A stretch of 5,118 bases of DNA from IMG/VR virus record IMGVR_UViG_2713896781_000020; one strand, 5' to 3'. Source of the stretch: a virus. Lineage: Duplodnaviria > Heunggongvirae > Uroviricota > Caudoviricetes. A program made the position numbers and the translations under genes. Shown one piece after another: positions 342 to 5,118 of the stretch (the first letter of the stretch is position 1; every line of letters begins with the position of its first letter). Below the pieces are notes generated by a model. That model did no database searches and was not told the DNA's origin. It worked only from the letters and a program-made list of their open reading frames with translations.

Positions 342-953
342 ATGGATGTTGCTGCCGGGTTATGTGAAGGGAACGAACCGTTGCCGGAAAAGCGCCCCAT
401 AATTTTAGAGGCGCAGGATGTGTTGATAACCTACAAAGGAAAGCTACCGGGAAGAATTACTGGTTCTCTGAAGATGCCGCCGTCAACACTGCGGTCAGAA
501 AAAGAGGCGTCTTGTCTGCAGTCTGAGTACTCCATTACGGTTAAAAGTGCCGGAGAGGAAGGAAATAAACGTTATTTTATTGCGTCTGCACCTGATAAAG
601 ATCAGGAATGGGAGTGTAACCGGCCATCCTTTGTTGTATACGGAGATGGCGGGAAAATAACCATCTCAGAAAATGGGAAATTAACACCGCCATCGCACCA
701 GCATAGTGAGGCGCTCATTGAATTTGCCATTGATTACCTGAAGAACAATAAAAAGCAGGGGCTGATGAAGCGCATTGGTCGTTGCATGGGATATCTGCAG
801 GTAGCAGCTGAGATTGAAATGATGGCCAGTGGTGCTGACAATGATGCAGTTGTGCTGGAGGCTCTTCTGCGTGATTTTGATAATACGCCCTTTAAGAAAG
901 CACCTGTTGACTGGATGCAGCCGGGGATGACTTATCTGAAAGGGCGTATATAA
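342..953 (+). CDS. Hypothetical protein, at least 203 aa, unknown function; the true start is probably inside the upstream N run
   Basis: Long uninterrupted ORF on the same strand as the lysis genes, stop TAA at 951-953. The frame stays open upstream from 342 back to the N run at 308 (AEAKKQAKQFF precedes the first Met), and neither ATG 342 nor ATG 474 has a convincing Shine-Dalgarno. I recognise no family or catalytic motif. The segment looks more AT-rich than the flanking lysis genes. Confidence 0.55.
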   Translation: MDVAAGLCEGNEPLPEKRPIILEAQDVLITYKGKLPGRITGSLKMPPSTLRSEKEASCLQSEYSITVKSAGEEGNKRYFIASAPDKDQEWECNRPSFVVYGDGGKITISENGKLTPPSHQHSEALIEFAIDYLKNNKKQGLMKRIGRCMGYLQVAAEIEMMASGADNDAVVLEALLRDFDNTPFKKAPVDWMQPGMTYLKGRI

Positions 954-962
954 GGTGGCTCG

Positions 963-1277
963 TTATCTGTTGCTGGATAATCGACTGAAGATGCGTTCTT
1001 TTTGTGTTTTTGCGTAATGATTGTCCCACTCACAATCAAGGTAGCTTAATTCTTCATTCAACCAGTTATTTATATTGGTCTTAATACGCATAAGCATGGG
1101 CTGTGTTAATGCTCTGGCGATAATGCCGAGAGTCACAGGTGTGAGATGTCCATACGGCTCAGCCTGAATGGATTTTACTGCATCGTGTTCTTGTGGGAGG
1201 AGTAAGAGGCACTCTGATTTTACCCGCTCATTTATGGCTTGCAGGCATAAATCATAATTATGTTGATCGTTATGCAT
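963..1277 (-). CDS. Hypothetical protein, 104 aa, unknown function, antisense to the late operon
   Basis: ORF on the - strand with AGAGGA about 6 nt upstream of the ATG (minus-strand context GTAGAGGATTAACC-ATG). Its stop is only 9 bp from the stop of the convergent 342-953 ORF. No + strand ORF above the track threshold competes in this interval. The region looks AT-rich relative to neighbours. No family recognised. Confidence 0.5.
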   Translation of the reverse strand: MHNDQHNYDLCLQAINERVKSECLLLLPQEHDAVKSIQAEPYGHLTPVTLGIIARALTQPMLMRIKTNINNWLNEELSYLDCEWDNHYAKTQKERIFSRLSSNR

Positions 1278-2964: not shown

Positions 2965-3014
2965 NNNNNNNNNNNNNNNNNNNNNNNNNNNNNNNNNNNN
3001 NNNNNNNNNNNNNN
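2965..3014. other. Run of N (masked or unknown bases, 50 nt)
   Basis: Literal n characters. Confidence 1.
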
Positions 3015-3244: not shown

Positions 3245-3304
3245 NNNNNNNNNNNNNNNNNNNNNNNNNNNNNNNNNNNNNNNNNNNNNNNNNNNNNNNN
3301 NNNN
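3245..3304. other. Run of N (masked or unknown bases, 60 nt)
   Basis: Literal n characters. It is followed on the + strand by CGTCGC-TTTTTTTT (3317-3325), which could be the tail of a terminator whose stem is masked. Confidence 1.
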
Positions 3305-3465: not shown

Positions 3466-3651
3466 TTACTTAATTATGTAATTCATACCCGAACTCTCTG
3501 TTGACAGCCTTCTTCTGCAGGCTTCAATAACCCACGCTGAAAAGTTTCCTGAACCTTTCAGATCAAGAGCGATGTTAATTTGTTCAATCATCTGGTTTGG
3601 AAATCGGATGTTGCGGGTTGTTGTTCTGCGGGTTCTGTTCTTTGATGACAT
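3466..3651 (-). CDS. Small ribbon-helix-helix-like putative DNA-binding protein, 61 aa (possibly a YlcI/DUF3950-type prophage protein; family assignment unverified)
   Basis: - strand ORF with GGGG about 8-11 nt upstream of the ATG. Translation MSSKNRTRRTTTRNIRFPNQMIEQINIALDLKGSGNFSAWVIEACRRRL... fits a basic N-terminal arm, a short beta-strand (IRFP), helix 1 (NQMIEQINIALDLKG), a turn (SGN) and helix 2 (FSAWVIEACRRRL), which is the RHH (Arc/MetJ/CopG) pattern. In E. coli cryptic lambdoid prophages a small gene of this kind lies just upstream of the Nu1-like gene, as far as I recall. Confidence 0.6.
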   Translation of the reverse strand: MSSKNRTRRTTTRNIRFPNQMIEQINIALDLKGSGNFSAWVIEACRRRLSTESSGMNYIIK

Positions 3652-3806
3652 AATGTTTCCCCATATTCAGTGTTGCTGATTTGTATTATCTGAAGTTGCT
3701 TTTACGTTAATTTGACGCAGATCAATTAATACGATACCTGCGTCATAATTGATTATTTCTCGTGGTTTGATGGCGTACACACATGTTGTGATAAACCTTA
3801 TATAGA

Positions 3807-3890
3807 TGATAATCATTATCATTTCGTGGGTCCTTTCCGGCGATCCGACCGGTTACGGGGCGGCGACCTCGCGCGTTTTCACTATTTATG
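3807..3890. other. cos: cos site: cosQ-like region plus cosN, with the 12-nt cohesive-end sequence GGGCGGCGACCT at 3858-3869
   Basis: GATAATCATTATCATTTCGTGGGTCCTTTCCGGCGATCCGACCGGTTACG-GGGCGGCGACCT-CGCGCGTTTTCACTATTTATGAG matches, from memory, the lambda right end (...GGGTCCTTTCCGG.GATCCGAC.GGTTACG) joined to the lambda left end (GGGCGGCGACCTCGCGGGTTTTCGCTATTTATGAAAATTTT), with a few substitutions. It lies directly upstream of the Nu1-like gene, as in lambda. Confidence 0.85.
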
Positions 3891-3906
3891 AGATTTTTTG
3901 AGGGGG

Positions 3907-4055
3907 TGGTTGTTGTTTAATTGTTTGGTATATCTAATTGATAAGTAAGGTGAAAATAAAATAAATACAACAACCTTACGATGTGTTTTGATGTCGTCAA
4001 TGCGAAAAATGTCAATGATATCAAATGGTTTTGCAAAAACACATGGTTGTTGTTT
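3907..4055. repeat. cosB-like region: three copies of a GGTTGTTGT(TT) motif (3907-3918 direct, 3967-3975 inverted, 4044-4055 direct) flanking an AT-rich segment; candidate terminase small-subunit binding sites (R3/R2/R1-like)
   Basis: TGGTTGTTGTTT occurs identically at 3907-3918 and 4044-4055, and ACAACAACC (reverse complement of GGTTGTTGT) at 3967-3975. The position between cosN and the Nu1 start, and the arrangement of an inverted pair around an AT-rich stretch plus a third copy near the gene start, parallel lambda cosB (R3-I1-R2-R1). The sequence itself is not lambda cosB. Confidence 0.45.
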
Positions 4056-4085
4056 CGCTTTTTATCGATGACTTATGGAGAGGAG

Positions 4086-4592
4086 ATGGCCTTTTTATTG
4101 AATAAAAGTGATATGGCCTCCTCCATCGGTATCTCTGTTCAGGCATTTGATAAATGGGGCGTTCCTCCTGTTGAACGTCGGGGGAGGGAAGTTTTATATG
4201 ACGTTAAAACTGTACTGGAGATAGATCGCGAGCGGCGACAACACAATCAGAGAACACCTGATGACGGGGGAGAACTGGAGGAAAGGCTGCTTCGGGCCAG
4301 AGCTGAACTGACAGAAGAACAGGCTGTAGCTCAAAAACTTAAAAATCAGGTAACCGAAGGTAAGCTCATCGATTCAGACTTCTGCGTTTTCGCCCTCAGC
4401 AAACTGGCGATGGCATTGTCCAGTACGCTTGATTCCATTCCGTTATCCATGCAGCGACAGTTCCCGGATTTAACGCCACGTCATATTGACCATCTGAAAA
4501 CCCTTATTGCAAAGGGCGCAAATCAGTGTGCGCGGGCAGGGGATAAATTACCGGATTTGCTGGATGAATATATCAGAGCAACAACTGAATAA
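4086..4592 (+). CDS. nu1: Terminase small subunit, lambda Nu1-like
   Basis: Translation ...SIGISVQAFDKWGVPPV...EVLYDVKTVLE...DSDFCVFALSKLAMALSSTLDSIPLSMQRQFPDLTPRHIDHLK...LPDLLDEYI aligns by eye with lambda gpNu1 (...EVLYD...ETAFCTFVLSRIAGEIASILDGLPLSVQRRFPELENRHVDFLK...IPGLLSEYI). Start chosen at ATG 4086, directly preceded by GGAGAGGAG. The ORF track starts at 3981, but that extension covers the cosB repeats and lacks a Shine-Dalgarno. ATG 4068 or 4113 cannot be excluded. Confidence 0.88.
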   Translation: MAFLLNKSDMASSIGISVQAFDKWGVPPVERRGREVLYDVKTVLEIDRERRQHNQRTPDDGGELEERLLRARAELTEEQAVAQKLKNQVTEGKLIDSDFCVFALSKLAMALSSTLDSIPLSMQRQFPDLTPRHIDHLKTLIAKGANQCARAGDKLPDLLDEYIRATTE

Positions 4593-5118
4593 TATGGTGG
4601 CCGCCGTTTCGGTTGCGCTGCAGCCTCTGGTCAGGGTTGTACCGATGACGGCAGTTGAATGGGCTGACCAGTATTATTATCTGCCGAAAGAATCCTCATA
4701 CGGTGACGGCGAATGGAAAACGCTGCCGTTCCAGATCGCCATCATGAACAGTATGGGGAATGATCAGATCCGCACTGTTAATCTGATTAAATCTGCCCGT
4801 GTTGGCTATACAAAGATGTTGCTGGGAGTCGCCGGGTATTTTATTGAGCATAAATCCCGAAACAGTCTGCTTTTTCAGCCCACGGATTCTGCCGCTGAAG
4901 ATTTTATGAAGTCTCACGTGGAGGCGACGATTCGGGACGTGCCATGCCTGAAAGATCTTTCCCCGTGGCTGGGTCGTAAACATCGTGACAATACTCTCAC
5001 GCTGAAACGCTTTTCATCGGGGGTGGGCTTCTGGTGCCTGGGTGGTGCGGCAGCAAAAAACTACCGTGAAAAATCCGTGGACGTGGTCTGCTATGACGAA
5101 CTTTCCTCGTTCGAGCCG
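4564..5118 (+). CDS. A: Terminase large subunit, lambda gpA-like (5' portion only; continues beyond the window end)
   Basis: Open frame from ATG 4564 to the window end with no stop. Translation MNISEQQLNNMVAAVSVALQPLVRVVPMTAVEWADQYYYLPKESSYGDGEWKTLPFQIAIMNSMG...IKSARVGYTKMLLGV...FMKSHVEATIRD...KHRDNTLTLKRF...FWCLGG.AAKNYREKSVDV is recognisably similar to the lambda gpA N-terminus (MNIS...TAVEWADANYYLPKESAYQEGRWETLPFQRAIMNAMG...KSARVGYSKMLLGV...). The first 29 nt overlap the 3' end of the Nu1-like gene in another frame, as in lambda. It is absent from the ORF track only because it has no in-window stop. Confidence 0.92.
   Translation, partial: MNISEQQLNNMVAAVSVALQPLVRVVPMTAVEWADQYYYLPKESSYGDGEWKTLPFQIAIMNSMGNDQIRTVNLIKSARVGYTKMLLGVAGYFIEHKSRNSLLFQPTDSAAEDFMKSHVEATIRDVPCLKDLSPWLGRKHRDNTLTLKRFSSGVGFWCLGGAAAKNYREKSVDVVCYDELSSFEP

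Follow-up and report, generated by a model that had tools for sequence, protein, structure and literature searches.

A lambda-like Escherichia coli prophage with a lambda-type cleavage module and a cosB of probable N15/Monarch packaging specificity

Gene order and the cleavage module

The window, i.e. the whole stretch of 5,118 nucleotides analysed here, matches, at 100% identity, a prophage of E. coli O111:H21 strain 15A (NZ_CP077477). A holin gene (38–253) is followed by two ORFs without assigned function, and by the genes for lysozyme (1406–1939) and Rz (2421–2894). An ORF of the DUF3950/YlcI type (3466–3651, minus strand) lies to the left of the cos region. On the other side, on the plus strand, a gene encoding a small terminase subunit of the Nu1 family, TerS (4086–4592; 168 aa; Pfam Phage_Nu1, E = 1.4e-21; start identical to that in RefSeq), overlaps at its end with the 5' part of a gpA-like large terminase gene, TerL (4564–5118), which runs off the window and is named as in the RefSeq entry for the identical locus of E. 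coli. In the identical genome TerL is followed by lambda-type head-tail joining, portal, S49 protease, decoration and major capsid genes (RefSeq). The annotation there gives TerS, TerL and the portal, protease, decoration and capsid genes as intact, with a YdfR pseudogene in the lysis region. The order holin/lysozyme/Rz – cos – TerS/TerL places the cos site at the lysis/terminase junction of a lambda-like prophage. Gene order and annotation are in agreement with a preliminary description of this DNA, which had located lysis genes on one side of cos and Nu1/A on the other, and the Pfam match bears out the Nu1-like protein proposed there. The stretch comprising cos and TerS was found in 220 of 5426 complete E. 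coli genomes (coverage of at least 80%), and a scan of GTDB species-representative genomes revealed the same cos/TerS lineage in E. albertii. A PICI cos site redirected by Rpp (recognised as cosQ/cosN followed by an rpp gene without a TerL-binding tail, and with no terminase or lysis genes) was also considered and rejected, as the site is flanked by a full-length TerS with its C-terminal domain, TerL, head genes and holin/lysozyme/Rz.

The cosQ heptamer GGGTCCT (3828–3834, plus strand), placed 23 bp before the top-strand nick, is identical and identically spaced in lambda and phage 21, and its 7/7 positions are invariant in alignments A3 (five genera) and A4 (Escherichia group). The cohesive-end sequence of cosN, GGGCGGCGACCT (3858–3869), is identical at 12/12 positions to those of lambda, phage 21 and PhiR12_1, and by homology the nicks would fall at 3857/3858 (top strand) and 3869/3870 (bottom strand). 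Between cosN and the first terminase-binding box, R3, lies the AT-rich I2 segment (3875–3907, bp 18–50 from the left cohesive end), of which 17/32 columns are invariant across five genera; the I2 of lambda has been reported as conserved and essential (PMC4856287).

Identity to lambda amounts to 87% over the 270 bp to the left of cosQ (3558–3827), to 28/30 positions from cosQ to cosN (3828–3857) and to 25/29 at bp 13–41 to the right of the cohesive end, the last value applying likewise to phage 21. The lambda homology detected by megablast stops at about 3898, and over bp 42–215 the ungapped identity is 48/174 with lambda and 48/174 with phage 21, i.e. random. Thus, the lambda-identical cosN with lambda-like flanks and the downstream cosB unlike that of lambda, both claimed in the preliminary description, are upheld. 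The alignment with the lambda and phage 21 cos regions that it had proposed gave a common cosQ/cosN and a different cosB, and its view of phage 21 as the classic case of a shared cosN with a different cosB was confirmed on the annotated record M81255.

R boxes and geometry of the cosB region

The core 9-mer GGTTGTTGT is present at three boxes of cosB in +/−/+ orientation. These are: R3 (TGGTTGTTGTTT, 3907–3918, core 3908–3916, plus strand, bp 50–61 from the left end), the inverted R2 (AGGTTGTTGTAT on the minus strand, 3965–3976, core 3967–3975, bp 108–119) and R1 (4044–4055, core 4045–4053, plus strand, bp 187–198), which is an exact 12-nt repeat of R3 and lies 30 bp before the TerS start codon. 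The 12-nt direct repeat and the inverted 9-nt copy had been pointed out previously, and all of their coordinates hold. With up to 2 mismatches allowed, TGGTTGTTGTTT gave 5 matches against 0.68 expected, a number reached in 0/200 shuffles. A look-elsewhere test with dinucleotide-preserving shuffles returned any 9-mer in three non-overlapping copies, on either strand of 3870–4085 (216 bp), in 8/5000 cases. A fourth exact GGTTGTTGT is located to the left of cos, within the DUF3950/YlcI ORF (3616–3624). Its role as an extra terminase site was rejected: it is base-for-base the same in lambda and codes for Thr-Thr-Thr, and, being shared with lambda and inside a coding sequence, it is not counted as part of cosB.

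Counted from the left cohesive end, R3 occupies bp 50–65 in phage 21 (as annotated) and bp 50–65 in lambda (PMC9026076), while R2 occupies bp 107–122 in phage 21 and approximately bp 106–121 in lambda. R1 lies at bp 150–165 in phage 21 and at approximately bp 150–165 in lambda (both lambda R2 and R1 were read off the lambda left-end sequence). The TerS ATG is at bp 229 here, compared with bp 189 in phage 21 and bp 191 in lambda. The lambda-like R3-I1-R2-R1 layout put forward earlier is supported, with R3, the candidate I1 and R2 agreeing in position within 1–2 bp; R1 is the exception, being 37 bp further out. Among the boxes, the role of R1 is the least secure, since its distance from R2 exceeds that in lambda and phage 21 by this amount and only close relatives keep it.

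The spacer between R3 and R2 (3919–3964) has a GC content of about 22% and harbours a candidate IHF site, I1 (TATCAATTAGATA, 3931–3943, minus strand, bp 74–86), with one mismatch to the IHF consensus WATCAANNNNTTR. A partial IHF-like core had been noticed on the reverse strand at this very position. The candidate coincides with the annotated I1 of phage 21 (bp 72–86) and shares its strand with the best consensus match of lambda (bp 79–91), from which it is no more than 5 bp away. Its core TATCT...TGA.AA is invariant in alignment A4, and the comparative scan found the consensus match missing from more distant loci with a complex (Monarch-type) cosB. Over the whole window the IHF consensus gave 7 matches against 5.99 expected, which is not above chance; as the scan was not enriched, IHF binding at I1 is regarded as no more than plausible, and IHF is the weakest component of the mechanism proposed below.

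With lambda, the site shares its cosQ, cohesive end and much of I2, the places and orientations of R3 and R2, a TerS of the Nu1 family and a TerL of the gpA type. The R boxes of lambda, however, are of the CGTTTCC type, unrelated to those described here, and its recognition helix reads SIRTIQNW as against SVQAFDKW. A cosB of lambda specificity was accordingly ruled out, given the lack of CGTTTCC-type boxes, the different helix and the identity of 48/174 over bp 42–215. The phage 21 record, in which R4, I2, R3, I1, R2 and R1 are annotated, has identical cosQ/cosN and coincident places of R3, I1 and R2, but R boxes of the TTTCATGTCGGGCCTT type, a gp1 helix PRTIERW and a differently placed R1. 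Phage 21 specificity (CATGTCGG-type boxes and the gp1 helix) was ruled out on the same 48/174 identity and on an unrelated N-terminal sequence of gp1.

Relationship to N15 and the Monarch prophages

The R box GGTTGTTGTTTAAT (bp 51–64) is identical at 14/14 positions to R3 of phage N15 (bp 50–63), whose left end reads GAGGTTGTTGTTTAAT at bp 48–63. R3 of N15 was mapped by linker-scanning (scrambling) mutagenesis to bp 48–59 (GAGGTTGTTGTT), of which bp 54–59 are critical (PMC4669245, PMC9026076): scrambling of bp 48–53 lowered the phage yield about 7-fold and scrambling of bp 54–59 about 100-fold (PMC4669245). Judged by this match, the repeat described here is the R3 box of N15, an identity that the preliminary description did not recognise.

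The N-terminal part of TerS constitutes the DNA-binding domain and the C-terminal part the TerL-binding region. Residues 15–24, GISVQAFDKW (codons at 4128–4157, plus strand), include the recognition helix and align with GASIRTIQNW of lambda. A phmmer search of PDB with TerS alone gave no match, and a profile of relatives was needed: that of 16 TerS proteins matched the lambda TerS structures 6HN7 (8.8e-7) and 1J9I (0.008) over residues 3–84, and the domain is homologous to the DNA-binding domain of lambda gpNu1. The helix ISVQAFDKW is identical to that of N15 gp1, GISVQAFDKWGV is the same in both proteins, and residues 1–45 are 78% identical.

The site and N15 cos share the same R box at the same distance from cosQ and cosN, in addition to the related domain and the identical helix. 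They differ in several respects. N15 has R3 only, with a remote inverted rR2 at bp 249–260 inside gene 1, and lacks an IHF site, R2 and R1; its gene 1 starts at bp 89, as opposed to bp 229 here; its cohesive end, GGGCGGCGTCCG, differs at two positions; and the C-terminal part of its TerS is lambda-like, whereas that of the window is PhiR12-like. The simple cosB layout of N15 is not what was found in the window, where 178 bp separate R3 from the TerS start and R2 and R1 occur, but rR2 does not: no R-like sequence (with up to 2 mismatches) occurs near +149 to +161 of the TerS gene, while N15 has one at +162.

Within N15 specificity, Feiss and co-workers (PMC4669245) distinguish the simple cosB of N15 from the tripartite cosB of the Monarch prophages. 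According to the published description, the Monarch prophages (Feiss et al. 2015, Virology 482:260) carry an N15-type R3 and helix, three R boxes plus a site for IHF in a lambda-like tripartite cosB, and no rR2 (PMC4669245). The window agrees with that description, which was the basis of the comparison in place of a Monarch sequence, in its N15-type R3, N15-identical helix, tripartite R3-I1-R2-R1 arrangement with a candidate I1, and absence of rR2 from the TerS gene. No difference is demonstrable from the description, with which the cosN sequence and the position of R1 are not comparable. Since the box is R3 of N15 and a tripartite cosB of this kind has been published as the Monarch group, the "non-lambda" cosB falls within a known specificity class; the published precedent, like the N15 box itself, went unrecognised in the preliminary description. 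As far as the published description allows, the cos site is a further, apparently common member of the N15/Monarch class, real but not new. The original report reportedly dealt with four Monarch prophages; the lineage of the window is present in E. albertii and in no fewer than 220 complete E. coli genomes.

GTDB species-representative genomes were scanned with peptide patterns from the DNA-binding domain (helix included). The 25 loci obtained belong to some ten genera, among them Escherichia, Trabulsiella, Pluralibacter, Erwinia, Aeromonas, Pseudomonas, Halomonas and Oceanimonas. The GISVQAFDKW segment is invariant in 16 TerS proteins that are otherwise 40–70% identical, an invariance that is partly circular because most loci were retrieved with that motif. 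The co-occurrence of the helix with the DNA box and the fixed position of the box are independent of the retrieval: GGTTGTTGT (with up to 1 mismatch) is found on the plus strand upstream of TerS in 25/25 loci, and in each of the 15 loci with a recognisable cosQ its start lies 79–82 bp beyond that of cosQ. Observed directly are which sequence elements are present, where they lie, how far they are conserved and that they occur together with the helix.

The layout of N15 prevails among these loci (18 of the 25), with R3 39–62 bp before the ATG and, in most cases, a further box, inverted and located 200 bp downstream of R3. The full tripartite layout is present in the window and in loci L005, L006 and L009. 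R3 and R2 are present in L008 and L012; within the gene, L012 has one more box, in direct orientation. L024 carries R3 alone, together with a long spacer. The distance between R3 and R2 is 59 bp in the window, L005, L006, L009 and L012, and 56–59 bp among the loci. When five divergent cos regions of the complex type, from five genera, were aligned, pairwise identity was 100% for cosQ, 93% for R3, 90% for R2 and 69% for I2, compared with 45% for the cohesive end, 37% for the R3-R2 spacer and 29% for the R2-R1 spacer. The retention of the boxes against diverged spacers across genera points to purifying selection. In alignment A4, R2 is invariant at 12/12 positions. R1 is conserved in the Escherichia group and L009 (94% versus 75–77% in its flanks) and absent or degenerate in more distant complex-type loci.

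Searches of 50,697 phage records (megablast and blastn of cosB/TerS) revealed no isolated phage with this cosB. The part of the TerS gene encoding the DNA-binding domain was matched only by N15 and one Enterobacter phage, and the 3' half of the gene by PhiR12 phages. By tblastn, this type of domain is otherwise found in many temperate phages of Pseudomonas. In Pseudomonas phage records that begin near the terminase gene, TerS starts about 50–210 bp from the start of the record.

Proposed mechanism, alternative readings and cassette exchange

Taken together, the locus is very probably a lambda-type cleavage module (cosQ, cosN and I2) joined to a cosB of N15/Monarch packaging specificity, in a lambda-like E. 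coli prophage. Extrapolating from experiments with lambda and N15, on which the binding, bending and nicking steps are modelled, a dimeric winged-helix TerS domain (helix ISVQAFDKW) would dock on the GGTTGTTGT boxes R3 and inverted R2, R3 being the critical docking site. Bending would turn the AT-rich spacer between them into a hairpin, with IHF probably bound near 3931–3943, and R1 (bp 187–198) may add affinity. TerS on R3 would then position TerL to nick at 3857/3858 and 3869/3870, which would generate the 12-nt GGGCGGCGACCT cohesive ends, where the preliminary description had placed the ends of the packaged genome, and initiate rightward packaging, and cosQ would act in termination.

An alternative is that cosB is functionally simple, as in N15, with R3 alone anchoring the terminase, R2 and R1 dispensable or left over, and no IHF hairpin. 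N15 indeed packages with R3 alone, its remote rR2 being non-essential (PMC4669245, PMC9026076), and the simple layout prevails among the relatives (18/25 loci, plus L024 with R3 only), to which may be added that R1 is not kept beyond close relatives and that the IHF consensus match is weak. This reading is nonetheless unlikely, as R2 retains 90% identity across five genera at 56–59 bp from R3, as opposed to 37% in the spacer, with a spacing equal to that of lambda and phage 21, and R2, R1 and IHF of lambda measurably raise packaging efficiency (PMC4669245, PMC9026076). Even less probable, and only a slight possibility in our opinion, is that the prophage is defective and its cos a decaying relic, in which the repeats persist through recent descent and not through current function. 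Many lambdoid prophages of E. coli are cryptic, a YdfR pseudogene is present in the lysis region of the identical genome, and no isolated phage with this cosB was present among the 50,697 records; against this, the annotation shows intact terminase, portal, protease, decoration and capsid genes, the element occurs in 220 complete E. coli genomes at a coverage of at least 80%, and the boxes are kept across genera while the spacers have diverged.

The GGTTGTTGT boxes might also bind a factor other than TerS, e.g. a transcription regulator of the late/head operon, or be mere GTT-rich, low-complexity sequence. GGTTGTTGT is close to a trinucleotide repeat, its fourth copy (3616–3624) sits in an unrelated coding sequence, and R1 is 30 bp upstream of the TerS start. 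Such an explanation is nevertheless extremely improbable: in 15 loci the box keeps a constant 79–82 bp from cosQ, it goes with a single type of TerS helix, other repeats take its place at these positions where the domain is a different one, the same box is genetically required for packaging in N15 (PMC4669245), and chance produced three copies of a 9-mer in only 8/5000 shuffles.

The replacement of boxes together with the domain is seen in phage PhiR12_1. Its cosN and I2 are those of the window and its TerS is about 88% identical over residues 65–168, but its TerS N-terminus is unalignable and its repeats are CATGTCCGGTT, at bp 50 (plus) and bp 108 (minus), i.e. in the places of R3 and R2. An unrelated DNA-binding domain accompanied by different repeats at the same positions suggests that cosB and the domain are swapped as a cassette. 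Conversely, E. coli OkiPb01706 and L009 combine the cosB and TerS of the window with different cohesive-end sequences, from which it appears that cosN and cosB recombine independently. On these comparisons, cosB and the TerS DNA-binding domain (about 3899–4287) seem to behave as an exchangeable specificity cassette, or mosaic unit, whose recombination would be tied neither to cosN, to one side, nor to the TerL-binding part of TerS, to the other. The earlier proposal that the cosB repeats determine the specificity of the Nu1-like protein gains from the same data, i.e. from the co-occurrence of box and helix in 25 loci and their joint replacement in PhiR12_1.

The assignment of N15/Monarch specificity places a common prophage lineage of E. 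coli and E. albertii in that packaging class, and not in that of lambda or phage 21. A prediction follows as to the helper phages or co-resident prophages that would be able to package its DNA and hence to mobilise neighbouring host genes. The principle itself is not new. To a modest degree, the comparative data favour two proposals already in the literature: one holds that the DNA-binding domain of TerS and cosB move jointly, as a specificity cassette, the other that N15 has its simple cosB from a tripartite one like that of Monarch. We tentatively extend the latter, as a possibility somewhat short of even, to the view that complex (Monarch) and simple (N15) cosB are two states of one widespread class, interconverting through unequal crossover of R3 with R1, with cosN and cosB recombining independently and packaging specificity uncoupled from the compatibility of the ends. 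The exact 12-nt R3/R1 repeat would be a natural substrate for such a crossover, and L012 and L024 would mark intermediates on the path. R1 lies 41 bp ahead of the ATG here, compared with 39 bp for R3 in N15. By calculation, deletion of the 137-bp R3-to-R1 interval shortens the distance from cosN to the ATG from 228 to 91 bp, and the agreement of this value with the 88 bp of N15 fits the published hypothesis of unequal crossover.

Assortment of cohesive ends and cosB

The complex cosB of the window (R3-I1-R2-R1) and its small terminase subunit (TerS) were also found in two other loci, L035 (E. coli OkiPb01706, NZ_AP042637) and L009. Alignment to window positions 3835-3880 revealed that the cohesive-end region of these loci differs from that of the window (e.g. 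GGGGTCGGTAGACGCGC and GGGTGCGTATACCCGC vs GGGGCGGCGACCTCGC), while cosQ and I2 are kept despite this change. As cosB and TerS are shared with the window and the cohesive end is not, the comparison argues that cosN and cosB assort independently.

Escherichia phage PhiR12_1 (PV340549, locus 501-700) has a cosN identical to that of lambda, but adjoined by another cosB specificity type, in which boxes of the sequence CATGTCCGGTT lie at bp 50 (+), 108 (-) and 138 (-), counted from the left cohesive end. These boxes are paired with the TerS N-terminus VATQTEVARHLSLTDRQLRRLQ, which is unrelated to the TerS N-termini of lambda, phage 21 and N15. The R boxes of phage 21 (CATGTCGG) bear a loose resemblance to CATGTCCGGTT. 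An apparent direct copy of CATGTCCGGTT with one mismatch was seen by eye near bp 146.

Across five genera, the block C.CTAT.TA.GA..TTTTT (window 3880-3898, bp 23-41) is invariant, and its conservation exceeds even that of the cohesive-end sequence. The block corresponds to I2, reported to be conserved and essential in lambda (PMC4856287).

Intermediate layouts and a fourth box

Two loci have cosB layouts intermediate between the simple N15 and the complex Monarch type. In a contig labelled Chryseobacterium sp. 18061, R3 is followed 58 bp on by an inverted R2, and a third, direct box lies within the TerS gene (bp 281-289); contamination may explain why a cos of gammaproteobacterial type is found in an assembly assigned to Chryseobacterium. 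The Pseudomonas linyingensis locus carries R3 only, with a long (~150 bp) GC-rich spacer ahead of TerS.

A fourth exact GGTTGTTGT is located at window 3616-3624, 242 bp left of cosN, within an ORF of the DUF3950/YlcI family (3466-3651, minus strand), where it codes for Thr-Thr-Thr. This box is probably coincidental, because the same sequence occurs in lambda, whose cosB is different from that of the window. Nevertheless, an N15-type box is present near the right end of lambda DNA, and lambda DNA is known to be packaged by the N15-specific terminase.

Lysis cassette and masked sequence

Two ORFs without a Pfam match, of 203 aa (342-953, plus strand) and 104 aa (963-1277, minus strand), separate the holin gene from the lysozyme gene; for an insertion within a lysis cassette, this position is unusual. 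The RefSeq annotation of this region lists a hypothetical protein and a pseudogene of the YdfR family, the latter truncated. The window also contains three runs of N (masked sequence), one immediately following the holin gene (254-308) and two between Rz and the DUF3950 ORF (2965-3014 and 3246-3304).
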